Positions 1,474 to 63,824 of a DNA stretch of 64,000 bases are shown piece after piece (position 1 is the stretch's first letter; the number at the start of each line of letters is the position of its first letter). The stretch lies in IMG/VR virus record IMGVR_UViG_3300032046_000013, positions 1 through 64,000 of that record; one strand, 5' to 3'. Below the pieces are notes generated by a model that was not told the DNA's origin, made no database searches, and saw only the letters and a list, made by a program, of their open reading frames with translations. Source of the DNA: a virus. A program made the position numbers and the translations under genes.

Positions 1474-1477
1474 TCAA
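1449..1477 (-). promoter_or_regulatory. Sigma70-type promoter for tnpB
   Basis: TTGACA (1477-1472), 17-nt spacer, TATACT (1454-1449), about 60 nt upstream of the tnpB ATG. Confidence 0.7.
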
Positions 1478-1484
1478 GCACTTT

Positions 1485-37172: not shown

Positions 37173-37980
37173 GCTCTGCCTCCCCATCGAGTTGCTGGCC
37201 CAGCCGCTCAATCAAATGCGCCCAAAACATTTTCCCATGTTCTGTCCGATCTTCAGCGGCGATCTTCCACAACGCACCATAGAGCCGATCCCCGGCGATC
37301 CAGAGTCCGACCGGGGTTTGCCTCAGACCGGATGACGCGAGTTTGGCCAAGATTTTGGCGTTCTGATCCGCTCCCTCCGAGGTGGTGATGATAGAATTTT
37401 CAAAGAACACTACGCCCCGGTTCAGTTCCACCGCTTTTTTTTGTTGGAAATTCGTCGACGCATCGCAGATCATGGTGCCGCGTTTCGGAGGTCTGATGTG
37501 ATCGCAGAAGTCCTGGGGCATGGCCGCGACGTTCCCACAGACGTTGCATACCGAGGTCGTGCACCAGGCTCCCATCGAAGTGTCGGTGATCCGCTGTTCC
37601 TGTATGGCCCGTTCGATCCCCGGTCGCCGGGACTCCGCGAGTTTCCGGTCCACGGCCATCAGGACCTTGACGTAATTCTGAGGCGTGTAAACCGCATCCG
37701 GGTTTGACCCGATCTTCAGGGATTCGTCCCAGTTCTCGTGATCCAGGCAGGCCCAGGAATCGACGAAAGTTCGGTAAGCAAGTTTCAGTTCTGCCCGCTC
37801 GAAGGCATCGTGATTTTCGTTCGAGCCGAAATCTTCCCAAGCTGACACTGCCCAGCTCTCAATATAGAAATTTTCTTCTGGATTCAGGGAAAAGCGAATA
37901 GCACTTTCTTTGAGTAGGCCCTGGACTTCGGCCTCGGGCCGGAGCCATAATTGATGGGATCGGGCAAATTTGAAAAACAT
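37156..37980 (-). CDS. Prohead maturation protease (assemblin-like, with zinc finger)
   Basis: NENHDAF...L..AYRTF...LDH, TSMG nucleophile-like motif, CNVC...CDH, FFENSII...GAD; synteny. Confidence 0.75.
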   Translation of the reverse strand: MFFKFARSHQLWLRPEAEVQGLLKESAIRFSLNPEENFYIESWAVSAWEDFGSNENHDAFERAELKLAYRTFVDSWACLDHENWDESLKIGSNPDAVYTPQNYVKVLMAVDRKLAESRRPGIERAIQEQRITDTSMGAWCTTSVCNVCGNVAAMPQDFCDHIRPPKRGTMICDASTNFQQKKAVELNRGVVFFENSIITTSEGADQNAKILAKLASSGLRQTPVGLWIAGDRLYGALWKIAAEDRTEHGKMFWAHLIERLGQQLDGEAEHGGEC

Positions 37981-48726: not shown

Positions 48727-51700
48727 CTACTGGGTAAAACGCGCAGACTGTTTGACCTTACCTTTTGGAGTCTGGGGCTTGCCACTCTGCTCCCATACTT
48801 CTTTGGCGATCTGATAGACTTCGATGCCTTGCTTGGATAGACCCTGGAAAAGTCCTTCATGGAACTGCTCCATCAGATCGTAATACCGATCTAGCTGTTC
48901 CTCGAAGCCTTCCTCGCCCGCCACAAGGTCTCCAGCCAAGTCCATGACCTGCTGACTGTAAGTATCGAGATCGGCATTGCGGCCCAGATATTCCAGCCAC
49001 GCCTGCACGAGGTCTTCGGAATGGTTGGCATATCGCAGTTGGCCAGTCATTTCTTCCCGAACCTGATCGGCGGAAACGGCTATGCCAGCTTCGGCGGCTT
49101 GGACACCCACATCGTAGGCCCCGCCACCAGCCCCGATTTTCCGCCTTGATGTTTTCTCCGGGGCCTGGGGTTTCCTTGGAGTCTTTCCCTTTGGACGCTC
49201 GGGCACCAGTTGGCGAGCCAATTTCCAAACATTGATCCCGCGTTCGCCTAATCCCGCGTCCACGCCTTCCCAAAAACCTTCTGAGATTTCCAGGTGATCC
49301 TCCACCATATCTTCGCCTTCGCCTTCGGATTGCTCTACAACCTTCCGCAGATGCGACGCAAATTGGTCCGTGCTCTCCCATGATTGTTGCCAGTGTTGAA
49401 CCAAGCTCTCCGCGTCATCGCCCGGCCCCATCTTATCCAAGTCCTGCTCCATCTGCTTAAGGATGTCGTCGGCAGATTCAAACATCCAGGCATCTTGAGC
49501 CGCATGAAGACCGGCCTGATATGCGAGATTCCGAATATCCGGAGTGCCCCCGACTTTCCGCCTTGATGTTTTCTCCGGGGCCTGGGGTTCGCCTTCGGTG
49601 TCGGGTTCGACAGCGAAGAAATTGAGCGTGACATCAAGCAGTTGCTGGCCGATTCCCGAAACGCCTTCTTTTAATTTCCCCTCATCCGCATAGGCACCCA
49701 AGTCATACGGGGGCATCGCGCCGAATCTCAGTGGCTCACCGATACCTTCTTCGCTTGATTCGATTATGGCATTGTAAAGCGGGGACTCAGGCGTAGCATC
49801 GAAACTCCCGCTCAAGTCTCCATCATGATCATGACCTTCATTTTGCGCCCAGTTCACAACGGTTTTCAGCCATGCTTCGGTGTTTTCCTCCAATAGGGCG
49901 ACATCCTGATTCAATTGGTCCCAAGCCGCGTCGTCGAGAGTGATCCCCCGTTCCTCGGCGTTCTGCTCGATCTCAAATTGATCCGTGGTGCTGATCGAGA
50001 ATCCACCTTTGATCGGCCCCTGGTAGTCGTCTGGGAGAGTGGCGGTCTTGCGCTGGCCCATTTTTTCTAATTCATTCCAGTCGCTTTCGCTACTGAGATA
50101 TTCCTCTCGCTCTTGGTCTTCATCCCACTCGATTACCACGCCTTCGATGCCATTGTAGGGTGGGTTGACCTCGATAACTCTCCCGATTCGACCTGACTGA
50201 TCTTTCACTTCATCTCCAAGCCTGAATGGATTCACGGCAGTCTTGCGCTGGCCTTCCACTTCATTTCCGCCACCCGAGTAGGTATCAATGGAATCCCGGA
50301 CTTCCTGGATTTCCTGCGCGACTTCGCCCGTCGCTTCCGCCGCCACGGAGTTCACGAGGTTCTCCACCATTTCCAGTTCATCCGGTTCAAAGCCCCGCAA
50401 GTCCTCGCCATCGAGGATGCGCTGGATATTCTGGATCACATCGGTCTGGCCCCGGTCGGATTTTTGGGTCAACAGCGTCGCCAGTGGCCCGAACTTGGCC
50501 CCGACCTTGCGCCGACCTTCCTTGCGCGGCTTGACCTCGCCCCCGCCTTTCAGGTCTGGCGACTTCATCGTCCGGTCATCCACCAGATTCTTCTCCGGGT
50601 CCTGACCCCTCCGCTTGTATTCTTCTCTGAGCAGATTCAGTTCCCCCTGTTCGGTAATGGTCAGGGACTTCGCGGCTTCCCTCTGTTCGAGCCGTCCGAT
50701 TGACTGAGCCAAGACTTTCGAGGGAATGCTCTGGAAGTGCTTGGTGTAATGGTCGGCCTCCTTTTTCGTCGGTATGATCTCGGCCAGCACCTGATCCCGG
50801 AACAGGTCCTCCGCTGTGTCGCGCAGGGTAATGCCCGTGACGTGGGTTGAGGCGGCCCGGAACAGGCCCCCGATGCCCTGGGTGGCCATAATGCCTTCGG
50901 GCGTCTGGTCCCCGCGTTTGAGGGCTTCCCGAAGGTATTCCATGTCCCCCCGGCGTTCCCGTTCCAGGGCTTGCCAGACCTGATGGGCGTTTTTCTCGAA
51001 ATACCGATCAAAGACTTGGCGATCCGACTGCATGGCCTGGAGACGACGGCGCATCCCCTCGGCTTCGTGACCCGTGACTTCGGTGATGCGGATGGTAATA
51101 TGACTCAAGGTTCCACCTTCGCCAGAATTATCCGCCATACCCAAGGCTCCACCTTCGGCTATCGCAACCTGGTTTCCTGACTGATCTGAGATTCCGAAAT
51201 ACAGGGAACTCGTGAAATTCACCCAACCCTGATTCGGGTCCACTTCATCGACCTCGGTGTTGATTCCATCTGGGGCGAATTCCGCATGGTAAGTGCCTTG
51301 GCCGAACTCCCGATCCAGAATGAAGTTCACGTTCTCCTCGATCAGATCGTTACGACCCCGACTATCCTCAAACTCCGCATCGATGTCTTCCAGTTCAAAC
51401 TCCGCACCGAGTCCGAGCGAGAAGTCGAAGCCTTCCTCCAACTTGGCCCCGTGCTTGCGCATCCCCATTTTTCCGCCCTCGACTTTCTCCAGATTGCCAT
51501 CTCCGAGGTTAACCCCGATAGCCCCCAAGGCCCATGTTCCCTTCCGACCCGTTGGTTGCAGTTCCTCATCCAGATATTCAACCGTGGCCACGAAACTATC
51601 CCAGCGGGCTTCGGGAATATCAGCCCGACTGCCCGTGTCGGTGATATTGGTGATCCTGAATGACTTAAAGCCTGATCCTTGAAAAACATCACCGACCCGA

Positions 51701-53343
51701 ATCTGCTCGATCAACTGGTTATAATCTGGTTTCCTGGCCCCTTTCTTACCCCCAGGCTGACGGTCCGCCATCGGACGGCCCGAGCTGGAATTGGGCCGGC
51801 AGCCGAAAATATCGCCTCCGCCGGCGTCCATCCCCTCATCCTCTGCCGTGCTCGCGGTCTGGTCAGCCACTGCAACCGCATGTTTGCATTTCCGGCCATG
51901 CTCACCGGCGGGACAGGAACAGGCCCATCGCCGCAACTCGCCGTCCATTCCGAGAAACCGGACCTCATAGACGTTGCCGGAATCGCTGTGCACCGCCCAG
52001 GTTTCGTTTTCGCCGTTTTTTTCGATTTTCACCACGTGCTCGAAACCTGGGGGAGTAACCGAGAATTTGAGACTGGCCTGGAGTTTCTTTCCGCCCCGGG
52101 CCAGCAGTTGTTCAATCGCACTCTGGGGATCGTCGCCAAGTTTATCGGTCTTGGTGTCGCCGCCCCACCGATTGGGTTGGGAGATTTTCACCGGCCTCAG
52201 CACATGGGTCGGTCCATATTCGTAATATCCGACCGAACCATCGCCCTGGACTATCGCCACTTCTCCGTCAGGCATCTGGTAGGCTCCATGAACCGTAGCT
52301 TGTTTGCGTTGGCCCATGTTGATCGTGCCTGATCCGACTCGCTTGCCGCCCTGCCTCACCAATTCCTGTATGGCTTTGCGCGGACCACCGAAATCATCAA
52401 TCGGAGTATCGGTATGTTGCATCGTCTTGGCATCATAATATCCGACTGATCCGTCACCGCTTACTCTGGCGAGTTCCCCGTTGGGCATCAGATACATCCC
52501 GTAAGTCGAGCCTTGCTTGCTCCAGGCAGTCCGCAGAATGCGCGTGGCCTCTTTCGCTTCCTCGGCTTCCGGTTCGGGTTTCTTCGACTTCTCGCTCGGA
52601 CTCGGTTTGGAATCCGAATTCTCCCCAAACGCTTCCGCCGTGGCCTCATCGATCAGTTTCTGACCATCCAGACCCTGGGAATCTGCGACCTCCACCAGTT
52701 TCTCCTGATGACTCTGCTCATCCAGGATGATCTCGTCCACGAGGCCCTCGGCCTCCCCGTTTTCATCCGAGGTCAGGGACTCCGCGAGTTCCTGATATTC
52801 GCCTGGAGCCTTCACTTCATCGACCATCGCATCCTCAATCAGGTCTTTCAATTCGGACTCCCCGGGTTCCGTTTCCTCGGTTTCCGGTGTCCGTTCCTCT
52901 TCCGCATGTTTCCGCATTTTCTTCTCTCCTTGTTTCGTCCCATAACCCGCGCTTTCCAGGACATCCAGAGCCGCCCGTGAACCGATGCTCCGCAAGATCA
53001 GCGTATAAACTCCCGCATTCTCCGTATCGTAATTCAACTGGGCTTCCAGAATCGGCACGGCCCGATCTCCAAATTGCACGACAGTCCGATATGCGCCCGA
53101 TTTCAGGCTGGCATCCGGGCTTTCAATAACTTCACGCAATAAGTCGGTGATCGTTTCCTCAATATCGGGACGGCGAGATCGTTTGGGCACATCATATCCT
53201 TCACGTCGCGCCATGTCATAAGCAATAGCCGCCGCTTGTTCCTGGGATTTGCCTTCGCCAATCAATTTTTTGATCTTTTGGCTGATCCACGCTTGAGCCT
53301 CGTCCGTGAGTTTGGCCCCGATCTTACGCACTTCGTTTCTCAT
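48727..53343 (-). CDS. Giant acidic multi-module protein (1538 aa), putative internal head polyprotein
   Basis: QAAAIAY module, ferritin-like DE..H segment, two GDGSVGYY modules, SWIM finger CSCPAGEHGRKCKH, SH3-like module, and two paralogous C-terminal modules, separated by basic linkers. Confidence 0.75.
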   Translation of the reverse strand: MRNEVRKIGAKLTDEAQAWISQKIKKLIGEGKSQEQAAAIAYDMARREGYDVPKRSRRPDIEETITDLLREVIESPDASLKSGAYRTVVQFGDRAVPILEAQLNYDTENAGVYTLILRSIGSRAALDVLESAGYGTKQGEKKMRKHAEEERTPETEETEPGESELKDLIEDAMVDEVKAPGEYQELAESLTSDENGEAEGLVDEIILDEQSHQEKLVEVADSQGLDGQKLIDEATAEAFGENSDSKPSPSEKSKKPEPEAEEAKEATRILRTAWSKQGSTYGMYLMPNGELARVSGDGSVGYYDAKTMQHTDTPIDDFGGPRKAIQELVRQGGKRVGSGTINMGQRKQATVHGAYQMPDGEVAIVQGDGSVGYYEYGPTHVLRPVKISQPNRWGGDTKTDKLGDDPQSAIEQLLARGGKKLQASLKFSVTPPGFEHVVKIEKNGENETWAVHSDSGNVYEVRFLGMDGELRRWACSCPAGEHGRKCKHAVAVADQTASTAEDEGMDAGGGDIFGCRPNSSSGRPMADRQPGGKKGARKPDYNQLIEQIRVGDVFQGSGFKSFRITNITDTGSRADIPEARWDSFVATVEYLDEELQPTGRKGTWALGAIGVNLGDGNLEKVEGGKMGMRKHGAKLEEGFDFSLGLGAEFELEDIDAEFEDSRGRNDLIEENVNFILDREFGQGTYHAEFAPDGINTEVDEVDPNQGWVNFTSSLYFGISDQSGNQVAIAEGGALGMADNSGEGGTLSHITIRITEVTGHEAEGMRRRLQAMQSDRQVFDRYFEKNAHQVWQALERERRGDMEYLREALKRGDQTPEGIMATQGIGGLFRAASTHVTGITLRDTAEDLFRDQVLAEIIPTKKEADHYTKHFQSIPSKVLAQSIGRLEQREAAKSLTITEQGELNLLREEYKRRGQDPEKNLVDDRTMKSPDLKGGGEVKPRKEGRRKVGAKFGPLATLLTQKSDRGQTDVIQNIQRILDGEDLRGFEPDELEMVENLVNSVAAEATGEVAQEIQEVRDSIDTYSGGGNEVEGQRKTAVNPFRLGDEVKDQSGRIGRVIEVNPPYNGIEGVVIEWDEDQEREEYLSSESDWNELEKMGQRKTATLPDDYQGPIKGGFSISTTDQFEIEQNAEERGITLDDAAWDQLNQDVALLEENTEAWLKTVVNWAQNEGHDHDGDLSGSFDATPESPLYNAIIESSEEGIGEPLRFGAMPPYDLGAYADEGKLKEGVSGIGQQLLDVTLNFFAVEPDTEGEPQAPEKTSRRKVGGTPDIRNLAYQAGLHAAQDAWMFESADDILKQMEQDLDKMGPGDDAESLVQHWQQSWESTDQFASHLRKVVEQSEGEGEDMVEDHLEISEGFWEGVDAGLGERGINVWKLARQLVPERPKGKTPRKPQAPEKTSRRKIGAGGGAYDVGVQAAEAGIAVSADQVREEMTGQLRYANHSEDLVQAWLEYLGRNADLDTYSQQVMDLAGDLVAGEEGFEEQLDRYYDLMEQFHEGLFQGLSKQGIEVYQIAKEVWEQSGKPQTPKGKVKQSARFTQ

Positions 53344-54833
53344 TTTTTTCTCCCCGGATAGGGTTCTTTCGCATAGGTCGGATCGTCCTGAGCGTTTTCA
53401 TTTTCCCGCTCTTCCCATGCTTGCTGATCTTCGGCCTGCAGTTCGGCCACGGCTTGATCGAATTTCCGATTGAACTCTATGGGATTATTCTCCTGAAACA
53501 GGTAATGCAATTCTTTCTCCGCATTACCGAGTGGTTGCTTGTCGATTGTGATCTCACGGGCATTCACTGCGGATTCCAGCGCATCATAAATGGCTTGTCG
53601 CAACTGACCTTCGACATCGGAGATCGTTCTGAGTTCATCCCAGAGTGCGTCAGCAGGATTTACCTCAGTCCCGTGCTTGGCCAGCGTTCCGTATCCGCCT
53701 TGGCCCCGCTCTTCCACCGTTTCTTTGACCTGACCGGACTGGCCGACCTGGGATTCCGACTTCTCGTTATTTTCCAGTTCTTTTAACGAATTGAGAAATG
53801 CCTCGGTGCCCAAGGTCTGCACGTGCTCCATATAGGACTGGGCTAAATCAGGCGCGACCTCCGCCGCAATTTGGCTTACCAAATCCCAATCAATTTCTTG
53901 ACCTTTGGGAACTCCGTCCTCCACTTCCGACTGGCGTAGTTCCGGCAGATGCTCGGCCATCCGCTGATTGATCTCCCAGAAGTCCTGGTCCTCATCGGCT
54001 TGGTCAGTCTGTCCGATCTTCGATAACGATGGTAATTTCCGGGGGTCCAGTGCCCGGCGTCCTGCTGATTCAAACTGGACGATCAGCACGTTCTCCTCGG
54101 GATGAACTTGGAGAACCTGACCCCGACCATAGCGGCGATAGAATACTTCATCACCTGGGTGGAAGTCCGCGATCCGAACGGCGGTTTTCTCCATCCGTCC
54201 CACGGTCTCCTGACCTTGGCCGATGTCCAGGATATAGGCCCGAAGCCGATCCGTGTCCATTCGACGTGCGGATTCGACCTGAGAGTCCCCGATCCCCGCC
54301 ATTGCGCACTTCGATTTCAGATAATCCACTAGTTGCGAGTGCGAGGCTGATCCAAGTCTCGCATGATCGGCCTGGATCAATGCTGAAAGTTTTTTCATCT
54401 TCCGCTCCCTTATCCCATAATCCAACTTCGTCCGCATCGGATTTGGAAATTTACTCGCTGTCGGAATGAACGACGCGACTTCTGCTGGATCGCCCCGGAG
54501 TATCGACTGGCCATCCAGCACGACATCTAGCTGTGCAATCAGATTATCCCATTGGACATCGATCAATGCACCCTGGGGATGAACCTTCGGAGCCAGGGAG
54601 ATCACGGTTCCGCCCAGCCGATCATACGTCCTAGTCACTCGGTCGCCCCGGAACACATCGAACGGCCCGCCCCGGAGAATCGCTGGAACCATCACATCAT
54701 GGGCCTGCATATCCTCAGACCGGGGACCGAAACGGTTGATCGTGCTGTGTTTAATAGTCGCCACGTGCCATATCTTCCCGAGTCGGAGGATTCTCTTCAT
54801 GGTTTCTGATCTCGTCTTCGAGTTTCCGCTCAT
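53340..54833 (-). CDS. Acidic multi-module protein (up to 497 aa; start uncertain)
   Basis: Two SH3-like modules (FRGDRV, FHPGDEV..YGRGQV); linkers KKLS, EKTA, SKIG, AKHG. Confidence 0.7.
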   Translation of the reverse strand: MSGNSKTRSETMKRILRLGKIWHVATIKHSTINRFGPRSEDMQAHDVMVPAILRGGPFDVFRGDRVTRTYDRLGGTVISLAPKVHPQGALIDVQWDNLIAQLDVVLDGQSILRGDPAEVASFIPTASKFPNPMRTKLDYGIRERKMKKLSALIQADHARLGSASHSQLVDYLKSKCAMAGIGDSQVESARRMDTDRLRAYILDIGQGQETVGRMEKTAVRIADFHPGDEVFYRRYGRGQVLQVHPEENVLIVQFESAGRRALDPRKLPSLSKIGQTDQADEDQDFWEINQRMAEHLPELRQSEVEDGVPKGQEIDWDLVSQIAAEVAPDLAQSYMEHVQTLGTEAFLNSLKELENNEKSESQVGQSGQVKETVEERGQGGYGTLAKHGTEVNPADALWDELRTISDVEGQLRQAIYDALESAVNAREITIDKQPLGNAEKELHYLFQENNPIEFNRKFDQAVAELQAEDQQAWEERENENAQDDPTYAKEPYPGRKK

Positions 54834-57800
54834 CTTCCTCAGTCAAGGGAATTTCCTGTCCATCCTCATCGACCAACCGGATACTGTGAATCTCCGTCTC
54901 TGGATGTTCCTCTGGCGAAGTCTCTGTCCGTCTCAGACCCGGACTGAAACTTGTTTGGTAATAAATCGTGGCATCCCGTTCATCCGGTCCCCAGACGGTG
55001 GGTAACGTTTCTTCACCTCCACGTTTGGGTAGGACCTCATCTATCGATGCCCGGACATCCTTGCTCGCTACGGTAGTCAGAGTCATGCCCCCGTGGTCAT
55101 CCAGAATCCAGACATTGGGCCAGAACTGTTGCTGTTCCATGCAAGCCTTGATCGCATCGTCAATGTCCTCAAAGTGGTTTCCCTCCCCGAAAAGGAACTC
55201 ATCAGAGCCGACTTGGACTTCGTAATACCCATCTGGGGTTTGCTCGATGACTTTCTTACCTCCCTGTTCCCATACTTCAGTTTTTCCACCCAAATGTCCA
55301 GTTGATTGGATCACCAGATCGCCGTCCTCGGGTTCCTGCGGTTCGTCCATCGGCTCGGCTTCCAACTCTTCCAAGGTTCCTTGTTTGGGTAGGACCTCAT
55401 CTTCGGAAAAGTCAATGTGCTTGATCATGCCCGTGCCACCGCATTCGGGACATCCAGATTCCCTGCCCCCAGGAATTTGCCCTTCACCTTGGCAGGTGGG
55501 ACATAGTTCGATTGAGGAAAATTCAGAGCCTCTGCCCGGAGGAACAGCCACTACTTTTGCTTTTCTTTTTTTAAATTCAGCCCATTCCTGTTCCTGCCTC
55601 TGGCTCCAATCCTCGATTTGTTTTTTCTGATATGCCTTATCTATCTTTTTTCCCTTCCAGTTTCCCCGGGGTTTGCTCAGCTCCGATGGTGCGTCTTTGT
55701 CCTGGGCGACTTTCTGGCTACTCGTGGCCAGAGTTCCCAACTGGGCCATCTGATTCTGGAGGTCAGTTGGAGGCCCATAATCCCAATACTTGACCTCGAC
55801 TCCCGGAAACATGACCTTGAAATATTGCTTCGGTTGATTATGTTCCAACTGATAAGGTTCATTTCCATACATGGCCTTGGCCCAAGCGACCCATTGGTAA
55901 GCCGAGAGTTTGGCTTCCTGCTCGGAATCGCGGTGCAGATGGATGGCCCCACTCGGATCGGTCTCAGGAATCTCGAACATCGGATCAGCCCCCTGCTTGG
56001 GCACGGCCCATGGGTCAATCGAAGCGGGTTTCTGACTTGTGCCCTTCACTTCTGGCATGTTCGGTGCAGGAGTCAATGGATCATATTCTCCGCCCTTGAT
56101 CTGTTCTAAGTAATCATCCGCCAGTTCCTGGGCTACGGCTTGGCGCACGGCCTGGGGGAACATCTTGTGCCACGGCTGATCAGGACTTCCGAACTCCTTG
56201 GCGTATTTCTTGGCTCCATTCTCGACCAGATACATCCACAGTTTCGGGGCCAGTGCGTGGTTGTAAGTCTGGTTTTTGAGCCGCCGCTGGATGTTCCGAA
56301 TGATCGGCATGAACTGCTGGTGGTAAAGGTCAGCATCGTTCTCGATGAACAACCGGAGTTCTTGCGCCCCATATTCATCTTTGTCTGGATCGGGAGGCAG
56401 ATCACTCTGCCATTCATTGTAATCCATGCCGAGGACTGGCAATCCCAGTTCTTCGTCCCAGACGCTCAGCTTTTTCATCTTGCTCCCCTTATGAGATTGA
56501 ATAGCGCGTTCCTGTCGTTCGGCATCAGCCTTTGAATCATGGGTGCCCAGCCGTTTCTTTCCGTCATGGGAGTAGAGCACCCACGAGTCGCCTTCTTGGC
56601 GGATGACCGCAGTTTTGGCGGGGGCTATGCTTTCGATTGATTTTTCAATCTGCGTATCCACCTCGAATTCTGTCAACCCGTTTTCGCGGGCCAGTCTTCC
56701 AGCCCACACTTTCGCCACTTCAAACATATCAGTAGATTGTGTAGTGCCAGCTATATTGGTTCCGTGAAACTTTTTAGGATCATCAACCACCTTGACTTGT
56801 AGTTGCCCACGCCTCGGCTGGCATACTGCTACCCAATACATTTGTCGTGCAGTCTTTCTCATCGCTAGCACTGGGGCGAACATCGGGAGATATAACGTGT
56901 CCTCGATCTCCTGGGCCAACACGGTTTCGCCCATGACTTTCAGCCGTTCGAGCAGGGCCATGAACCAGGCTTTGCCCCGTTCCAGATATTTACGGACGAA
57001 CGCCTCGGCCCCAGTGTCGGTCGGCTGGGATTCGGTCTCAATCACCTGCTCGATCTGGGTGGGCAGGGGAAAGTCCGACATCGCCTCCTTGGCCTGGATC
57101 GGCGTAATATCGATCTCGTCCGCCTGGACATAGCACTCGGACTGGAGGAACTTCGCAGCCTCGCGCACGGACCTCAGAGTCGGAAAGTCCGCGATTATAA
57201 CTTTCTGGCCCTCGGTCACCAGCCGTCCACCGTGGGCGAGACAGAAAGACCGAGCGTCCCGGAAAGATGCCTGGACGAACCCGGGCATCTGAGACCACCC
57301 GGCCTTTACGAGGTTCGGGAACGTCATCCTGTAATGTTCAGTCTGCGCGAGCGTCGGCATGGTCGGCTCCTTCAGTTTTAGCGGCTTCCCGTCAAAGATC
57401 GGACTGGGTTCCAACGTCCCGTCCTCGCGGGTGTGAAATCCCGCAGGTGTGCGGGGTTTCAGGTATGAGGGCGAAGTGATGTCACGTTTCTTTCCACCCT
57501 GTTTGAGTATGGATAATACCTGTTCCAGCGAATCGGATTCCGGGGAATCCTTGACGATATTAAAATCCTTCGGCTCGTGCTCGTGCGATGTCCGGGCATG
57601 GTCGGAGATGCGGACATCCAGATATTTTTCTTCCTCATCCGTCCCGTCCTTGCGGAAAGTCAGATAGTCGGACTGGGATGACATGGCCCCATACTCATTG
57701 CTCAGTTCCCAGCCCCCGGCATCGGCGGCATCCTTGATCTGATCTTCTACCGAATCCTTCCATTCGTGCCATTCTTCGCGTTCCTGGCACTGTTCGCATA

Positions 57801-57951
57801 ACCGGGATTCGCCTTCCAAGGGCACGGCCTCAGTGTCTATCAGATCGCCGTCATCATCGTAAGTATCGGTGATCTCGGCCTTGACCTGCACCAGATGGTC
57901 ACACTGTTCGCACGGCCACCGGGCATAGTCGGTTCGCGTTTCAGTTCGCAC
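54751..57951 (-). CDS. Acidic multi-module protein (1066 aa)
   Basis: CxxC pair, VRISDH module, IRQEGDSWVLYS..KRLGT module, ELRLFIEND module, CPTCQGEG/CPECGGTG finger; linkers RKTA, AKTA, KKLS, QKVA, PKQG. Confidence 0.75.
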   Translation of the reverse strand: MRTETRTDYARWPCEQCDHLVQVKAEITDTYDDDGDLIDTEAVPLEGESRLCEQCQEREEWHEWKDSVEDQIKDAADAGGWELSNEYGAMSSQSDYLTFRKDGTDEEEKYLDVRISDHARTSHEHEPKDFNIVKDSPESDSLEQVLSILKQGGKKRDITSPSYLKPRTPAGFHTREDGTLEPSPIFDGKPLKLKEPTMPTLAQTEHYRMTFPNLVKAGWSQMPGFVQASFRDARSFCLAHGGRLVTEGQKVIIADFPTLRSVREAAKFLQSECYVQADEIDITPIQAKEAMSDFPLPTQIEQVIETESQPTDTGAEAFVRKYLERGKAWFMALLERLKVMGETVLAQEIEDTLYLPMFAPVLAMRKTARQMYWVAVCQPRRGQLQVKVVDDPKKFHGTNIAGTTQSTDMFEVAKVWAGRLARENGLTEFEVDTQIEKSIESIAPAKTAVIRQEGDSWVLYSHDGKKRLGTHDSKADAERQERAIQSHKGSKMKKLSVWDEELGLPVLGMDYNEWQSDLPPDPDKDEYGAQELRLFIENDADLYHQQFMPIIRNIQRRLKNQTYNHALAPKLWMYLVENGAKKYAKEFGSPDQPWHKMFPQAVRQAVAQELADDYLEQIKGGEYDPLTPAPNMPEVKGTSQKPASIDPWAVPKQGADPMFEIPETDPSGAIHLHRDSEQEAKLSAYQWVAWAKAMYGNEPYQLEHNQPKQYFKVMFPGVEVKYWDYGPPTDLQNQMAQLGTLATSSQKVAQDKDAPSELSKPRGNWKGKKIDKAYQKKQIEDWSQRQEQEWAEFKKRKAKVVAVPPGRGSEFSSIELCPTCQGEGQIPGGRESGCPECGGTGMIKHIDFSEDEVLPKQGTLEELEAEPMDEPQEPEDGDLVIQSTGHLGGKTEVWEQGGKKVIEQTPDGYYEVQVGSDEFLFGEGNHFEDIDDAIKACMEQQQFWPNVWILDDHGGMTLTTVASKDVRASIDEVLPKRGGEETLPTVWGPDERDATIYYQTSFSPGLRRTETSPEEHPETEIHSIRLVDEDGQEIPLTEEDERKLEDEIRNHEENPPTREDMARGDY

Positions 57952-59882
57952 TATTCCGTGTCCTCGTTCGGATAGGGGACTTGCGATTCGTCCATTGGCT
58001 TTTCAATTCCCATCAAATCATCAAATTCTGAGCGATCACCATGAAGAAAAGCATCTGCAATAAGTTCCAACATGGGTGGTTCCGGTGCGGGTTCATCGAG
58101 TTCCGCGAAGAATTTTTGCATGGTCATGGAGTTGATCTCGGCGTTGGGGTCTTCGGGAATTCTATTCATTGTTTTCTGAAGAAAATTCCAAAGGGCATTG
58201 GCGAGCGATGCAGTTTTCTTCCGTCCTTCCGTCGGCTCCTCGGCCCAGGGGTTGTTGTCAGGCGATTGCCCAGCCGAGGTCTTGCGCGAACCTACGGCTG
58301 AGGAAAACTTGGGCTTCCATCGGTTCTGTCTCTTGGCCGAATCCTTGAGCAGATCGCGGAGCCAACTCTCGAAATTCGATGTCCGCACCACGGCCCCATT
58401 GCGGGTCATCGCGTCCAGTTCGGACTTACCCACGGAGGTCGTGGCCCCGTCCTCCCAGGCGACGATCCACAGAGACTGACCCCGCTCGACCGCTGCATCC
58501 ACGATCTTACCAGTCCTGTAAGGTTCGACCTGCTGGAACTCATCTTCGACATTCCACCGGAACATCCGCGATCCCTGAACAGGCTGTTTCTTCGCGTCCG
58601 CGAGCAACCGCTCGAACACATCCACGGCCCGTTCCAGATTACCCGTGAGTTTCTCCCACAGGCCCTTGATCGAGTCCCAGATCCCGGCGGTCACGATCCG
58701 GCTTTGCTTGGCTGGTTTGACCTTCACCGTTTTGATGTCCGAGATCGAGGTCGTCTGTTTTGTCAGGTCAGCCAGCAGTTTCTCGACCGTCGCTTTTGCT
58801 TCGGCATCCACATGCTTCAGGGCCTCGGCAAGGGCTACGGGATATGTCCGGGCATACGACGGGTTCTCTTTGGTCGTCCATGCCAGTTCGTAAATGTCCT
58901 GGTCCAGCCGGATGCGGAGTTTGCCCACCGACTGCACGGCCTTGAAGATTGCCGGGTAGGCCATGAGTGCATCCCTATCTTTCTTCATCTGCTTGTCCAG
59001 CGTCTCGAACTGGTGCTTGGCCTCGTCGCACTTGGCCAAAGTTTCTTTAAGCGACCGCAGAGACTGCTCGATCTCCGGTGGCAGACCCGCCAGTTCGCCT
59101 TCGGGAACCCGGGCCGGAAGTCCGGGGTCCTCGCCCATAGGCATGTTCTTGTCGGCAGTCTTGCGCGAACCTTGTTTTTTCCATTGACCCGAAGCAATCA
59201 AATTTTCCAACTCAGTTTCTTTCAGCCAATGTTCGCCACCATGAGGGTCTCCCTCGATAGTAACCCAGTAACGCGGTTCCCCCCATTCTTCAGGGCCTTC
59301 GTTGGCCATTTCCTTAATCGTATATCGCTGGCCTTTCGAGTCTGTGAAACTTTCCCCTACTTGATGTAGCATTGTCTCGGATCGTAAGGCACGCTTGGTC
59401 AGTCCGAGTTCCCGGGCCAGCCGATCAGCCCGGCCCAGCTTGCGCGAGGCTTCTTTCCAGGCATGGTCAGGATAGAACAGGTCTTTGGCGTTCGGGTTGT
59501 CCATGGAGTCCCCACGCCAACCGCCGTCCACGCGCTGACCCCGGATTCGGTGAGTATTCCTCTGCTGCTCCGGGGGGTTCCGATAAGATTGGGCGGCATC
59601 GCTCGGAATTAGCGTGAACTCCCGGACTTCCGAATCATCGGCGGTCTTGTCCAGCCCGAGTTCCTGGGCCAGCCGGTCGGCCCGCGATTGTCCCTGCTTG
59701 GGCATCACTTCCTGCTTTTCCTGCCGGTGACCCACGAAGTCCAGTTCATCGGCCTTGAGGTCCCCATGAAAGAATCCCAAGTCCCCATACCGATCAATCT
59801 GCGCCCGCAGGTCATCCCGGGGTTCGCGTTTGGGACTTACCGCATTTTTCATCAACCTAGTCAGATGATCTGCTTCAGACAT
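57951..59882 (-). CDS. Multi-module protein (643 aa; start MSEAD)
   Basis: AAGGAG RBS at the true start; duplicated RADRLAxELGL; linkers PKQG, DKTA, RKLG, KKQG, RKTA, KKTA. Confidence 0.75.
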   Translation of the reverse strand: MSEADHLTRLMKNAVSPKREPRDDLRAQIDRYGDLGFFHGDLKADELDFVGHRQEKQEVMPKQGQSRADRLAQELGLDKTADDSEVREFTLIPSDAAQSYRNPPEQQRNTHRIRGQRVDGGWRGDSMDNPNAKDLFYPDHAWKEASRKLGRADRLARELGLTKRALRSETMLHQVGESFTDSKGQRYTIKEMANEGPEEWGEPRYWVTIEGDPHGGEHWLKETELENLIASGQWKKQGSRKTADKNMPMGEDPGLPARVPEGELAGLPPEIEQSLRSLKETLAKCDEAKHQFETLDKQMKKDRDALMAYPAIFKAVQSVGKLRIRLDQDIYELAWTTKENPSYARTYPVALAEALKHVDAEAKATVEKLLADLTKQTTSISDIKTVKVKPAKQSRIVTAGIWDSIKGLWEKLTGNLERAVDVFERLLADAKKQPVQGSRMFRWNVEDEFQQVEPYRTGKIVDAAVERGQSLWIVAWEDGATTSVGKSELDAMTRNGAVVRTSNFESWLRDLLKDSAKRQNRWKPKFSSAVGSRKTSAGQSPDNNPWAEEPTEGRKKTASLANALWNFLQKTMNRIPEDPNAEINSMTMQKFFAELDEPAPEPPMLELIADAFLHGDRSEFDDLMGIEKPMDESQVPYPNEDTE

Positions 59883-60534
59883 CGCTATCTCCTTCATCAT
59901 CAAAAATTTCGCGCAATCGCTCCAACCGCGCTTCGTGCGTTGATCCCTCGGCCAGCCCGAACTCATCCAGGTCGGGATGCACCCTGTCCGTGTAGCTGTT
60001 CCTGAACGTCTGTTCTTCCATGGTGATATCCGAGACGTTGCGTCGAAGTTCCGCATCTTCGCCTGCGGATTCCCGCACATCGGACTGTCCTCGATCATGG
60101 GACGAATCATACGGTGCTCGGGTAAAATCGATGCCGGGAATGGCACCGGAGAAATCGTCCAAGCCGAGGTCTATCTCGTTTTCGTTGAATTCCGGGACTT
60201 CCCCAAACTGCGGATTTTCCCCTCGGGGTATGGGTTGGCCCCGGAATTCCCGTTCTCGGGGTTCAGAATCACGGCGAGGATCAGGGGTTGGCGCGGCTTG
60301 GACGGGTATCCCTTGGCTCGCACCCCAAGTCACAAACCCCGATTGGGGTCCTGCGAGATCAGCCCGAGTAATGCCTTGAAGCAAATCATCCGCTGATATT
60401 CCTGGCTCCGCACCCCACCGTTGTTCGATGATCTGACTTCCGACCTTGATCGTCCGCCGAGGTCCCAAGAATCGGAAACCTTCTCGGGGGTCCTTGCCAC
60501 CGCTACCCTCGCCATCAAATAATTTCCTCATCAC
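59875..60534 (-). CDS. Acidic low-complexity protein (219 aa)
   Basis: AAGGAG RBS; overlaps the next start by 8 nt. Confidence 0.65.
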   Translation of the reverse strand: MMRKLFDGEGSGGKDPREGFRFLGPRRTIKVGSQIIEQRWGAEPGISADDLLQGITRADLAGPQSGFVTWGASQGIPVQAAPTPDPRRDSEPREREFRGQPIPRGENPQFGEVPEFNENEIDLGLDDFSGAIPGIDFTRAPYDSSHDRGQSDVRESAGEDAELRRNVSDITMEEQTFRNSYTDRVHPDLDEFGLAEGSTHEARLERLREIFDDEGDSDV

Positions 60535-60543
60535 CCGCTCCTT

Positions 60544-60915
60544 TTATATGCCGATCAGCCGTTCATGCTCCGGCTTTTCCAGATAATGCCGGATCGCCGA
60601 GATCGAGGTCCGAGCCAGTTCGATAGCTCCTTCGTAGGTGGCGTGATCTATCTGATCGCCACTCAGCAAGTGCGGCAACTTCATGTTGATCTGCCACTCC
60701 TGAGTTCGGATACACGCCTGAAGCCATTCCTCGAACTCGGATTTCAGGCCGACTCGATTCTGCTGAGCCGCTTGCAAAAACATTTCGTAGAGGTCCACGA
60801 TATGCTGTTCGTCGTCCCAGTCGTCTGGCCGCAGTTTGCCCGCGAATAGAGTTCGCTTCTCCGCAGGCAGGCCCATGAAGGCCCGGATTTCATCGGGCGA
60901 GACTAGACTGACCAT
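60544..60915 (-). CDS. Hypothetical protein (123 aa)
   Basis: GGAGG RBS before MVSLVS. Confidence 0.6.
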   Translation of the reverse strand: MVSLVSPDEIRAFMGLPAEKRTLFAGKLRPDDWDDEQHIVDLYEMFLQAAQQNRVGLKSEFEEWLQACIRTQEWQINMKLPHLLSGDQIDHATYEGAIELARTSISAIRHYLEKPEHERLIGI

Positions 60916-60934
60916 CGGCTTTTTACCTCCGAAC

Positions 60935-61120
60935 GAAGTGTCCCGACTCGATCTGTGATACGCTCCCCCGCATGAATGCGGGGGCATCTCGGATCAGACA
61001 TGGGCCTCACCCGATACGCTTGTCGGTTCTACGATCCGGCTTACTTTTCTGTAACGAAAAGCAGGGGCCGTGATCTCCCCGACCGTCACTTCGGGCGTAA
61101 CCCGCCCTAGTTCGAGAATG
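60935..61120 (-). ncRNA. Orphan TnpB-type omegaRNA/IS right end of a second family (guide AGATCGAGTCGGGACACTTC)
   Basis: Hairpin CCCCCGCATTCATGCGGGGG (60984-60965), then AGCGTA-TCAC ending at 60955; upstream GGGCGGGTTACGCCC hairpin; reads ILELGRVTPEVTVGE like a tnpB tail; no tnpB ORF attached. Confidence 0.6.
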
Positions 61121-61224
61121 ATTCATCGAGGTCTGCCTGGGCTTCCCTTGGATACACTGGGGCAAATTTCATTGCCTCATCGTAGTCATGGTCATTTATC
61201 AGCCGTTTTTCTGTCGTTTCCATC

Positions 61225-61797
61225 TCACCCTTCTCCTTTGATCGTCACATGCGTGATTCCCGGACTCGGCTTCGCTACTTCCGATTCCGGGGGCCTGAGC
61301 AATATCCGAAAAGCCGGGACCTGAATCAATGCGCTTTGAATGTCCGTAGGCAATTCATCCCATTGGTCTAGCAACAATTCACGGCTCGGAACTTCACCGA
61401 AAATCGATTGCAGAATCCCGACCCGTTTTTCGATAATCATCTGATCCCATTGCTCTTGCGCTCGGGTTTCTATCGAGGAAATGTGCGCGGTTTTACCGTA
61501 ACTCAACATCGTCGCCCTCTGGTCCCCCATGCCCGGAGACTTCTCTTTTCCAGGCACGGGAAATGACAGTAGGTAATCTATGCGTTTCAAATACTGATCA
61601 ACTGCGATGCAGGAGTTCACGATAGACACCACAGAGACTGCCATCGCCCGTTGGAGTTGGGATAACTGAATATCCTGCTCCCGGTCTGAGGGTAGCAGAT
61701 GTCGGTTCTCCACGGTCTGCCGCAGACGAATCGCCGCATTGCGGATGTCCGCCACGGCTTGGTCGATCTCACTGCGCTTATTTATCTGATCAGCCAT
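61225..61797 (-). CDS. Hypothetical helical protein (190 aa)
   Basis: TGATG coupling; GKTA linker; QWDELP..IQSAL. Confidence 0.65.
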   Translation of the reverse strand: MADQINKRSEIDQAVADIRNAAIRLRQTVENRHLLPSDREQDIQLSQLQRAMAVSVVSIVNSCIAVDQYLKRIDYLLSFPVPGKEKSPGMGDQRATMLSYGKTAHISSIETRAQEQWDQMIIEKRVGILQSIFGEVPSRELLLDQWDELPTDIQSALIQVPAFRILLRPPESEVAKPSPGITHVTIKGEG

Positions 61798-63824
61798 CAG
61801 AATCCATACTGGGACATCGAAGGCCCCTTGCTCACATTCTCATCCGACGGCTGGATGCCCCGCCGCACGGGTTCGCCCACTTCCAACCCCATCCCGAGTT
61901 CCTGCCGTAGGTCATCATCAGTCTGAACGGGCAATCCCTGGGATTCCGCCTGTTCGACTAACTGATCAACCTCGGACTTCAGTTGGGAAATCTCTTCGGT
62001 CAATGAATCCCTGTGCGTTCGCCATTCCATCACCCGCTCTTTTAATGTATCCATCCGATCCGGCGTCTGGATCACTTGGGGCGTGACCGGGGCCACCATC
62101 TGGGTCAATTGATCCAGAGGCACCAGATCGAAACTCAGGGGGCCTTCCACGACCTGAAATTCCATGCCGTCGCATCCGTCCAGACCGTAACCCTGCTTGG
62201 CGCGGAAGGCGAATATCCCGGGTTCCGTTTCCTCAAAATGTCCGTCTCGAATGCTTCCCATTTTGGACAGGGGGATGCGGTTGGGCAACCGAGCAATAGA
62301 GGCCCGGAATTGCTCGTCCGTAATTCGAGTATCCTCCAGGCCAGCGGTTTTCGCTGTGGCGGGTATTCGGCGCGAGAGCATTCCCTTGTAAAATTCCCGA
62401 TCTTCCGGGGATGAGTAATAGTAGTTCACCACCTCATCCGGGTCCAGGCCCTGATCTCGCGCCCAGTCCAGAATCTGATCTTCATCCCGCCCCTGGATAC
62501 TGAATTGATCGATCTGGTCTTTCACTTCTTCGCTCAGGCGTGAGGTCTTGGCCACGGGTGTCGCGGACTTCCACTCTCCGGTCTCCGGGGTGAACCGATA
62601 CCGCGAGATTTCCCGGTCTCCGTTCGGACCAGAGAACACGGCAATCAGATAGGTCTGCTGGGGCGCAAACTGTCCATGCTGACGAGCCGCGAGCCGAGCC
62701 TGGGCTACGGATGGGAACTGGCCTAGGTCTTCCCCCTCGGGGGTTCGCACGGACACGACTTGGCGGAGTCTCCGCGAGGTCTTGGGCTTCTCATCCAGCG
62801 GCTTATGGCACTTCGGACACTCCTGCTTATCCGGGTCCAAAATCTGGAAATGACAATGCGGACATTCCCGAGGGTCCGGTTCGTTCACCGTATCGGCGTC
62901 CGCCGATGCCTGCTTTTTCCACCTGGGTTCATCCTCGACGTTCGCCGCAAGGTAGCCCATAACATCTTCCTTGAATTCCGAGGCCAGTTCGTGCACCGCT
63001 TCCTGGAGGCTCAGCTTGTCCGCACTCACCTCGTTCACTTGCTCTCTGAGTGCTCGCACCCGATCCAGCATTTCCTGGTGCCCCGAACTCTTGGCCAGGG
63101 CCTCTTGCATGTCCAGCAGGTTCATGCCCAAGTCCCGGAGGTCCTGTTCGAGGCCCTGGCGTTCGGCCCCGACTTCCTCGATTTCCGAAGCAATGGTTCC
63201 GAATGGATCATCTTCACGAAAGGCCGCGAGAGTATCGCCTTCCTCAAGTCTCCACACTTCTCCGGCAGGATCGGGCCATTGATCGAATCGCTGGATTGCC
63301 CCGGACTTGGGTTTGATCTTCGCTTGTTTGTTCATCGCACCTTCATTCCGTTGGGCCTGTTTCATTACTGACCGGACATAGCCTAACTGGAATGGGGACA
63401 CTTCGCCAGTTCTTTCATCTTGCAGATCAATATCCGTCGCAAAAGGATTCCCAGAAGGCTGATATGGTTTCGATACCACCACATAAACATCTTCGCCATC
63501 GATCAATTTATCGCCGACACCAGGCGTTTCCATGAGTCCTTCCCAGTCGTCATCTTCATCTGGCTGTTCATTCACATTCGCACCTTCATTAGATTCATTT
63601 CTCATCGCAGTTTTCCTTCCCGTCGTAGCCGAATCATCGCGTTCCTGGACAATGGCCTGAGTGCCGATATTTGTCAAAAGGTTTTGCCTTGCCACCGCTT
63701 CTTCCTCAGTCTTGAACATCCCGTCCAACATCCAGGAGTTAGCCACAAATTTCATCACCCGGAAACGTAGCATCGGACGATAGTCGATATCTCTCAATAG
63801 CCGATCAGCCGTGCGTGGCCTCAC
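61797..63824 (-). CDS. Acidic multi-module protein (675 aa)
   Basis: Linkers RKTA, MKQA, NKQA, KKQA, AKTS, AKTA; coiled coils; CPHC/CPKC ribbon. Confidence 0.75.
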   Translation of the reverse strand: MRPRTADRLLRDIDYRPMLRFRVMKFVANSWMLDGMFKTEEEAVARQNLLTNIGTQAIVQERDDSATTGRKTAMRNESNEGANVNEQPDEDDDWEGLMETPGVGDKLIDGEDVYVVVSKPYQPSGNPFATDIDLQDERTGEVSPFQLGYVRSVMKQAQRNEGAMNKQAKIKPKSGAIQRFDQWPDPAGEVWRLEEGDTLAAFREDDPFGTIASEIEEVGAERQGLEQDLRDLGMNLLDMQEALAKSSGHQEMLDRVRALREQVNEVSADKLSLQEAVHELASEFKEDVMGYLAANVEDEPRWKKQASADADTVNEPDPRECPHCHFQILDPDKQECPKCHKPLDEKPKTSRRLRQVVSVRTPEGEDLGQFPSVAQARLAARQHGQFAPQQTYLIAVFSGPNGDREISRYRFTPETGEWKSATPVAKTSRLSEEVKDQIDQFSIQGRDEDQILDWARDQGLDPDEVVNYYYSSPEDREFYKGMLSRRIPATAKTAGLEDTRITDEQFRASIARLPNRIPLSKMGSIRDGHFEETEPGIFAFRAKQGYGLDGCDGMEFQVVEGPLSFDLVPLDQLTQMVAPVTPQVIQTPDRMDTLKERVMEWRTHRDSLTEEISQLKSEVDQLVEQAESQGLPVQTDDDLRQELGMGLEVGEPVRRGIQPSDENVSKGPSMSQYGF

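Follow-up and report, generated by a model that had tools for sequence, protein, structure and literature searches.

The stretch of viral DNA analysed here (IMG/VR virus record IMGVR_UViG_3300032046_000013, positions 1 to 64,000; the window) is the first 64 kb of one 86,227-bp contig from an uncultured phage and encodes, on the minus strand between the terminase and portal genes, five large open reading frames (ORFs), here named A to E, in which small modules are joined by a recurrent basic linker. We hypothesize, and give the idea about an even chance, that these ORFs encode head-associated polyproteins, that is, chains of small, independently folding modules, many of them acidic and most with no known function, that would be cut at the linkers by a prohead protease of assemblin fold. 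A sequence-only reading of the same DNA had described them as packaged-cargo polyproteins, processed in the prohead and ejected with the DNA as an anti-defence library; the modular strings, the conserved linker, the occurrence of its motif in head proteins and a protease with the fold of T4 gp21 agree with that description, while no homology to anti-defence proteins was found. The weight of the finding is comparative only and comes from the same linker apparently joining unrelated modules in several genomes.

Five modular chains joined by a common linker

The five large ORFs that the sequence-only reading had placed upstream of the portal are all found on the minus strand, with lengths of 1538, 497, 1066, 731 or 643, and 675 amino acids (aa) for A to E. 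The gene order on that strand is terminase, E, three small ORFs, D, C, B, A, a 113-aa ORF and the portal, beyond which follow a plus-strand gene block and then the prohead protease, a 753-aa scaffold-like protein, a 178-aa ORF and the major capsid protein. Polyprotein A (48727..53343, net charge -108) comprises about 13 modules and lies directly upstream of the 113-aa ORF and the portal. The 497 aa of polyprotein B (53340..54833, net charge -19) are counted from its first ATG, and since its 5' end overlaps C by 83 nt, the true start of B may be further in. Polyprotein C (54751..57951) has a net charge of -71. Polyprotein D (57951..60146, net charge -6) has an open frame of 731 aa from the first GTG, and its likely start, an ATG at 59882 just past the stop of the upstream ORF, gives 643 aa. 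Polyprotein E (61797..63824, net charge -44) is the first large ORF after the terminase gene. On these net charges the earlier description of the modules as very acidic applies to A, C and E only, and not to B and D. The sole sequencing run listed with the window DNA is a sediment metagenome, which is a possible source of the phage, and no RNA run is listed.

The strict linker motif was written as [RK]K[TQHIVL][AGS], and its expected number was taken as the sum of the per-protein shuffle means. It occurs at 19 sites in A to E (nine, one, two, five and two, respectively) against about 2.05 expected, and when the scaffold is included at 22 sites against 2.88, a number reached in none of 300 shuffles. 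The 28 other ORFs of the window (12,156 aa) hold six strict sites against 3.64 expected, and 42 of 300 shuffles score as high, so that the predicted enrichment of the linker in the five ORFs over other proteins is borne out. The bulk of the strict-motif signal lies in A and D, and in A alone the pattern RK.[AG] is found ten times against 0.9 expected. With the looser form K[TQHIVL][AG] the five chains have 36 sites against about 12.6 expected, and the scaffold, which had been said to share the motif and does, has 14 against 4.1. The earlier mention of dozens of linkers was therefore generous for the strict form, and a preceding Met, also claimed, is present within four residues upstream at 7 of the 19 strict sites and lacking at the remainder. 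Since the motif was chosen post hoc, all three-residue patterns with or without one gap were also counted blind to it. The top pattern in the chains is KTA, with 10 occurrences against 1.07 expected (Poisson P ~2e-7; roughly 24,000 patterns), followed by EV.P and KQG (9 against 1.34 each), G.RK, PM.E, G.KK and RK.G, four of these six being pieces of the linker.

The linker is often bipartite, consisting of K-x-[AGS], zero to two residues and then [RK][RK]-x-[AGS], as in WKKQG-SRKTA-D, LEKMG-QRKTA-T and PEKTS-RRKVG-G. Scored as K.[AGS].{0,2}[RK][RK].[AGS], this form occurs eight times in A to E against 0.57 expected (0 of 500 shuffles as high) and once in the 28 other ORFs against 0.7 (257 of 500 shuffles as high). 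In chains that are otherwise acidic, the linkers form the main basic elements. Five of the six Arg codons and both Lys codons occur in them, and codon usage also varies among the linkers of the related phage L005 (see below); because the codons differ, the constraint acts on the peptide and not on the DNA. A DNA-level recombination signal as the main cause of the motif was ruled out by this codon variation, although a 42-bp repeat spans two linkers of A.

All linker sites are encoded on the minus strand. The first in A, RKIG (53317..53328, residues 6-9), stands behind a 5-residue N-terminal leader and is followed by RKHA (52903..52914, residues 144-147), located after KQG-EKKM, and by RKQA (52297..52308, residues 346-349), which separates two copies of a scaffold-like module. 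Further along A are the bipartite sites KMGMRKHG (51448..51471, residues 625-632) and KEGRRKVG (50500..50523, residues 941-948), RKTA ahead of an SH3-like module (50236..50247, residues 1033-1036) and the bipartite KMGQRKTA (50041..50064, residues 1094-1101); free homologues of the module after the last of these start 3-8 residues later. The final two, KTSRRKVG (49549..49572, residues 1258-1265) and KTSRRKIG (49132..49155, residues 1397-1404), are also bipartite and lie in the two copies of the 42-bp direct repeat (49548-49589 and 49131-49172; 97.6% identity). The same linker-encoding 42 bp thus precede each of the last two modules of A, which look paralogous by eye, unaligned. B contains KKLS (54384..54395, residues 147-150) after a Met and a Shine-Dalgarno-like AGGGAG, and C contains RKTA (56848..56859, residues 365-368) and the bipartite KGSKMKKLS (56464..56490, residues 488-496). 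In D, the bipartite KEASRKLG (59433..59456, residues 231-238) and KKQG-S-RKTA (59154..59180, residues 323-331) are followed by RKTS (58275..58286, residues 621-624) and KKTA (58209..58220, residues 643-646), and E has RKTA (63606..63617, residues 70-73) and KKQA (62907..62918, residues 303-306).

The motif in capsid protein, portal, scaffold and protease

A portal search returned 57 proteins including the window's own, and the relatives are 30-63% identical to it. IMG/VR and JGI contigs were scanned with a portal alignment for related loci. In their capsid protein, L028 is 79% identical to the window, L004, L005, L006 and L008/L010 are 61-64% identical, and L007, L009 and L011 45-47%. Among named phages Bacillus phage G is the nearest (portal 32% and capsid protein 39% identical).

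The major capsid protein (33463..34404, minus strand, 313 aa) has RKIA at residues 51-54 (34243..34254, minus strand), directly ahead of the conserved N-arm ANMANPVR. The sequence G-L-x-K-I-[AS] is found at this place in the window, L028, L004, L005, L006 and L008, that is, in five of the five closest relatives, and the 50-65 residues ahead of it are variable. Residues 131-139 of chain B (~54419-54445, minus strand) read NPMRTKLDY and resemble the NPVRTKLDY of the capsid N-arm at eight of nine residues (BLAST E 0.17); this could be an N-arm mimic or chance, and no such copy outside the capsid gene was found at the other loci compared.

The portal (45552..48287, minus strand, 911 aa) is interrupted by an intein with a LAGLIDADG endonuclease and carries K-Q-G at residues 21-23 (48219..48227, minus strand; FRMAKQGS). 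The corresponding N-terminus of the phage G portal is FQMAKQAAS, so that the two share F[RQ]MAKQ[GA]. When the 27 residues ending 8 before the conserved PE[IV]R block were examined, 22 of 26 relatives had K-x-[AGS], against 9.2 expected from shuffles, and the other four had R-x-A. The intein gives Hint, Intein_splicing and LAGLIDADG_3 matches at residues ~257-617; it is missing from most relatives, and about nine portal homologues of 906-1126 aa have intein or endonuclease domains. The window's portal also occurs as protein P0156 on a 96,645-bp contig, compared with 86,227 bp here, and a more complete assembly may therefore exist.

The prohead protease (37156..37980, minus strand, 274 aa) is predicted to have the assemblin/T4 gp21 fold. 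It matches phrog_18299, annotated as head maturation protease, with E 5.6e-8, and its model, based on 22 homologues, has a mean predicted local distance difference test score (pLDDT) of 77. Foldseek ranks herpesvirus proteases and T4 gp21 highest, at E-values that are weak (5e-3 and above). Upon re-alignment T4 gp21 scored Z 9.8 (3.1 Å, 131 residues) and the herpesvirus proteases Z 6.9-9.7; the top 38 structural rows comprise only these proteins, and the MCE proteins that come next, which are unrelated, do not exceed Z 6.4. In sequence, 8-14% of residues are identical to those of the solved proteases. All 22 homologues retain His81 and Ser135, which are presumably catalytic. The motif-like K-L-A-S (37333..37344, minus strand, residues 213-216) closes the last strand of the folded domain and precedes a low-confidence stretch. 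The domain ends in AKILAKLAS in the window, in ILEKVAS in phage G and in YLEK[IL]A in L005, L006 and L008, where the ORF continues into the scaffold.

The scaffold-like protein (34950..37211, minus strand) has a 753-aa open frame, or 740 aa in the protein collection, and shares with A both the motif and one module. Its ORF overlaps that of the protease by 56 nt (37156-37211, minus strand) in a different frame, in the window as well as in L028, and the two proteins form one ORF of 878-941 aa in L004, L005, L006 and L008. The overlap in the window could reflect a split gene or a joining frameshift, and recalls the nested protease and scaffold genes of herpesviruses. The scaffold of L028 (4671-7460) lacks the module shared with A and instead has long insertions with repeated K-T-S-R-M-Y-R-R. 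The scaffold ends are conserved between L028 and the window, including a K-T-A near the C-terminus.

Modules, their homologues and their turnover

Residues 1-1200 of A were compared with 1.84 billion representative proteins, and four module families were matched; a full-length relative of this part of A was not found among them. Residues 2-60 are DUF6496-like, with homologues that are 50-100-aa free proteins and parts of other phage proteins. Residues 270-348 are matched by the window's own scaffold alone, and two tandem copies of a module of ~75 aa are present here (52084..52536, minus strand; A 270-345 and A 347-420), which are paralogues of scaffold residues 234-308 with 58% and 50% identity and occur once in that protein. 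Residues 435-528 form a SWIM zinc finger with free homologues of 70-120 aa, which begin at A 438. Residues 1105-1195 have free homologues of 107-190 aa, and the matches begin at their residues 3-8, so that the N-terminus of this module projects 3-8 residues past the linker at A 1098-1101. Chain A thus has at least five homology-defined modules, and the free homologues themselves are without the motif. Where module borders are set by homology (A 1105-1195, the SWIM finger and a phrog_6004 module that begins directly after a linker in both L005 and L008), they coincide with linkers. In C, residues 447-491 are a phrog_3684 module, of which residues 450-490 match a free 66-aa Kuttervirus gene among tRNA genes, for example in phage PhaxI.

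The search for stand-alone homologues, proposed as a check of the original idea, therefore succeeded for several modules, and the module types named in it stood in part. The SWIM finger is above the Pfam cut-off, while the zinc ribbon, at C 817-846, is only a zinc-ribbon-like stretch with a Pfam score below it, ferritin-like modules were not reproduced, and the SH3-like type is recognized only by likeness to a repeat protein and by KOW matches in relatives. PHROGs searches with the five ORFs gave families of unknown function, the DUF6496-like family and one weak SbcC-like coiled-coil match, and Pfam searches with the free homologues gave DUF6496-like and SWIM matches only. The proposed anti-defence modules were not recovered, as none matched a known anti-defence or DNA-mimic family in Pfam and PHROGs, and acidity alone is not diagnostic of DNA mimicry. 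The same Pfam and PHROGs scans of the five ORFs revealed no homology to IPI, IPII, IPIII or Alt and no capsid-targeting element. Neither A nor E matched any of 50,697 phage records by tblastn. A word-indexed search of 5.8 billion proteins gave no relatives of A at 845-2692 aa and only the window's own SWIM gene at 30-844 aa, and no relative was obtained with A as query against IMG/VR. These null results mean only that no close full-length relative of A was reachable and do not prove absence. Sequence searches of the PDB with A, C, the protease and a protease profile gave nothing meaningful, and an ESM Atlas look-up with the module A 1102-1261 gave no usable match.

The SWIM module of A (51760..52031, minus strand) is an in-frame copy of a free gene at contig positions 76534-76805 (272 bp, 98.9% identity). 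The identity begins at the second base of the start codon of the free gene, which is ATG there and GTG in A, and ends three codons before its stop. Free SWIM homologues elsewhere have the same ends, and hence the free gene is likely the donor and the copy in A is likely a recent capture. The free gene itself (contig 76522-76932, minus strand), outside the window, encodes ~94 aa from an ATG preceded by a Shine-Dalgarno sequence and is located in the non-structural region of the genome. The ORF immediately upstream of it encodes 372 aa with a Walker A motif and, by eye, an SbcC/Rad50-like N-terminus. A second kind of change is seen between L008 and L010, which come from different samples and are 99.99-100% identical over 21 kb save for one 249-bp tandem module duplication. 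The duplicated L008 module (7286-7534) is SH3-like, and the breakpoints are in two linkers. The notion of an expandable, changeable module set is in keeping with these cases of capture and duplication (the SWIM copy, the tandem module and the L008/L010 copy number). On the sequences at hand, module turnover occurs at the linkers.

The linker in related phages

The contig of L028, the closest relative, ends short of the region upstream of the portal; the comparison draws on more distant phages. L005 has acidic ORFs of 1097, 1410 and 453 aa upstream of the portal and L008 has ORFs of 1085, 1134 and 539 aa. Both have two-part linkers such as FEKTA-MKKKA-G, LEKVG-SRRTA-S and GKKGS-VRKTA-D; GKKGSVRKTA of L005 and EKVGSRRTA of L008 have the same form as the linker at D 323-331. 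The bipartite pattern gives 16 matches (14 distinct linkers) in L005 against 0.44 expected, with 0, 0 and 20 of 500 shuffles as high per ORF, and 8 in L008 against 0.44, with 0, 0 and 500 of 500 shuffles as high. The top motif-blind pattern is MK.K in L005 and KR.A in L008. SKKTA-type linkers are also present in L030, L060 and L045; of these, L030 and L060 show in part the punctuated, equally large acidic ORFs upstream of the portal that are seen in L005 and L008/L010. The N-termini of the chains are alike as well, with MRNEV-RKIG in A of the window, MSN-RKQA in L005, MMRT-RKTA and MN-KTA in L008 and MGNKG-KTA in L007. No module is common to the chains of the window and those of L005, L008, L011 or L007 at E<1e-3, and some modules are common to L005 and L008 in altered order. 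The linker is conserved across these related phages while the modules change.

Other arrangements are found at the same place. L011 encodes a 1460-aa acidic protein upstream of the portal (4042-8424) with an N-terminal HAD/polynucleotide-kinase-like domain, a ParB-like domain and no linker motif, and its HAD-like part corresponds to a separate 355-aa gene in the window (44045-45112). L052 and L053, whose portals are ~30% identical, contain at 1248-9779 at least five free paralogous genes upstream of the portal that all start with MKKLSNFY and are filled with ~22-residue repeats (LTSLEGAPE[RK]V.G.F.C) of a leucine-rich-repeat-like family. In the late region of the window itself, a 400-aa ORF (28307-29509, minus strand) has an RRXRR/HNH endonuclease domain (Pfam E 5.9e-32).

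Proposed processing and comparison with known systems

We propose that the linker is the recognition and cleavage site of the phage's own prohead protease, which is the simplest function for such a peptide. The chains would be late products that assemble together with the scaffold in the procapsid; the protease, activated there, would then trim the capsid protein, the portal and itself and divide the chains into their individual modules. Herpesvirus assemblin suggests, by analogy, that the linker would be cut behind its small residue. The motif sits where prohead proteases cut in phages that have been studied.

The internal proteins of T4 carry a capsid-targeting sequence that is cut by gp21, and the T4 site rule is x-x-Glu; ejection and inner-body proteins are processed by gp175 in phiKZ and by gp245 in SPN3US. 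The SPN3US enzyme recognizes a single motif, A-x-E, followed preferably by Ser, and processes at it the capsid protein, the portal, ejection proteins and its own chain, with multiple cuts within one protein (PMC10052503). The window resembles T4, phiKZ and SPN3US in that one short motif is common to the capsid protein, portal, protease and chains and in the fold of the protease; the N-terminal leaders of the chains also end in the motif and may correspond to those of T4-type internal proteins, a role in capsid targeting being putative. In contrast to these phages, the motif is basic-basic-x-Ala/Gly/Ser and not x-x-Glu, and many unrelated modules have a site between every pair, compared with one propeptide and one mature part. 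There is also no sequence homology to the internal proteins of T4 and phiKZ.

Herpesviruses provide a further parallel for the site. In pseudorabies virus, the R (release) and M (maturation) sites are given as YLQA-T and VQA-S, and these two sites illustrate a cut after Ala with Ser or Thr next (PMC4498786). Together with the use of a single motif in SPN3US, they suggest that the putative cut is after the small residue. Like the UL26 precursor, the phage protein is predicted to have the assemblin fold, and in L004, L005, L006 and L008 protease and scaffold are one ORF with x-[LIV]-A at the junction. In contrast to UL26, the system belongs to a bacteriophage, Lys is preferred two residues before the small residue and there are many more putative substrates.

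The chains also recall the polyvalent proteins of phages and conjugative elements described by Iyer, Burroughs, Anand, de Souza and Aravind in 2017, which combine many domains per polypeptide (from two to fifteen or more), lie near portal and terminase genes, are proposed to be packaged and delivered with the DNA and have mosaic, fast-changing architectures (PMC5512222). The chains are likewise multidomain and lie between terminase and portal. However, polyvalent proteins are built around enzymatic domains, and any processing is attributed to a peptidase domain within the same protein, whereas the window chains lack polyvalent-type domains (MPTase peptidase, ART, methylase-helicase, DdrB-like ParB and MuF) in Pfam and PHROGs; the chains have a repeated inter-module linker, and the word "linker" occurs 0 times in the main text of PMC5512222. 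Phage G has a homologous protease and the similar portal N-terminus given above, and several of its small head-module genes start with [ST]R[LI]KK, but its terminase-portal region consists of separate genes (gp2-gp13) and not of linker-punctuated chains. No cleavage sites or cleavage rule for phage G were found in the text of its multi-omics and tail papers, and neither polyprotein cargo of phages nor prohead cleavage at K-x-A was found described in the literature searched.

A bolder proposal, which we regard as unlikely on present evidence, is that the chains are a heritable toolkit, in which small genes are captured between protease sites, packed, released by the protease and injected with the DNA. 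The products would be present on entry, without the need of early transcription; the SWIM copy would show capture soon after the event, and the difference between L008 and L010 would be the same process at the population level. Under this proposal, basic-basic-x-Ala, cut after the small residue, would be a specificity class of phage assemblin-fold proteases, and it is conceivable, if doubtful, that this rule is nearer to the Ala-Ser rule of herpesviruses than to the Glu rule of T4.

Alternative explanations

Several observations weigh against cleavage of the chains by the prohead protease. Cleavage, packaging and the cutting enzyme are all things that we infer from the genes. The strict motif was defined after the sequence had been seen, and B, C and E taken singly are weakly enriched for it. 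L028 (EILAS) and L004 (EVLAS) have protease ends without Lys, and since this end is predicted to lie in a strand, structure alone may account for its conservation. At the capsid site more distant relatives have RLA or RVA, including phage G with RVA and no Lys, and in L011 and L007 the large acidic proteins in the position of the chains lack the linker. When residues 1-1200 of A were folded from the single sequence, the mean pLDDT was 42.8 with 896 of 1200 residues below 50, which is too poor for domain borders; in this fold six of seven linker sites are below 50, as are 75% of all residues. Finally, linkers with Met, a Lys-rich start and three to four Shine-Dalgarno-like sequences, together with free MKKLS genes in distant relatives, suggest that the motif may be partly inherited from gene starts.

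This last point leads to the view that the linkers are fusion relics, the remains of gene ends and starts after stop loss, which would be functionless or serve as internal translation starts. Shine-Dalgarno-like AAGGAG, AGGGAG and GGGGAG are indeed found 5-8 nt ahead of an in-frame ATG at A 143, B 146 and C 492, the Met near 7 of 19 sites would fit, free paralogous genes in L052 and L045 start with MKKLS, and the captured SWIM gene retains its start codon as GTG. However, relics would be expected to erode, whereas no pattern is more over-represented than the motif in three diverged genomes; linkers in L008 have Ser for Met (SKRTA) with the rest kept, an upstream sequence resembling a Shine-Dalgarno site even loosely is present at no more than 5 of the 14 Met linkers of L005, the motif is also inside the capsid protein and portal, and the free homologues of post-linker modules lack it. 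Internal translation starts as a general explanation were ruled out by the L005 count and the Ser for Met in L008. A functional peptide is favoured over a relic by the enrichment, by the conservation amid unrelated modules and by the motif in four core head proteins, and we consider the relic explanation the least probable of all. Hardly more probable, and still very unlikely, is that the chains are cut by another enzyme or elsewhere, by a host protease in the cytoplasm for instance, for fixed-ratio expression of small proteins unconnected with the capsid. Trypsin-like and other host proteases commonly cut at basic pairs, and the missing capsid-targeting homology also speaks for this explanation, but the genes are within the head module between terminase and portal, they share a module with the scaffold, and the motif is common to the capsid protein, portal, scaffold and protease.

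If the linkers were flexible spacers, DNA-binding patches or charge-balancing patches of uncut multidomain proteins, polyvalent-type virion or non-virion proteins that act whole, their being the main basic elements of acidic chains would be accounted for. Large multidomain proteins beside the portal and terminase genes are a described class, of which some, the N4 virion RNA polymerase among them, are packaged unprocessed (PMC5512222), and the 1460-aa protein of L011, with its ParB-like domain and no linker motif, occupies this very position. Spacers leave unexplained, however, why the same type of tetrapeptide is found at the capsid N-arm, the portal N-terminus and the protease-scaffold junction and why its fourth residue is conserved as small, and we consider this explanation quite unlikely. 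The idea that the chains are scaffold-like filler accepts the cutting at linkers and holds that the acidic pieces are lost from the head prior to DNA packaging or in its course, none being delivered. It is in line with the strong acidity of the chains, with the ~75-aa module common to A and the scaffold, with the scaffold being modular too and having the same motif, and with SPN3US, where most propeptide fragments were no longer detected in heads (PMC10052503). Yet the SWIM finger was copied from a free gene of the non-structural genome part, homologues outside head modules, such as the 66-aa PhaxI gene among tRNA genes, are unexpected for pure filler, and the module content turns over completely between relatives. 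We regard filler as an unlikely account of the chains as a whole. For the fate of individual modules, the signs are divided between expelled filler, to which acidity and the scaffold-shared module point, and cargo, which is indicated by the captured non-structural SWIM finger and by free homologues encoded outside head modules.

Implications

If the linkers of the putative polyproteins are cut, roughly two to three dozen individual small proteins of the head would come from a few genes, and a module could be added or dropped by a single in-frame insertion. Phages would thereby have a simple genetic means of altering what they bring into the cell, and part of the large unexplained coding space beside the portal genes of big uncultured phages would be accounted for. 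The phage proteases of assemblin fold would gain a second specificity class, and a module flanked by K-x-A/basic-basic-x-A would serve as a portable design for the loading of foreign proteins into capsids of the phage G type.

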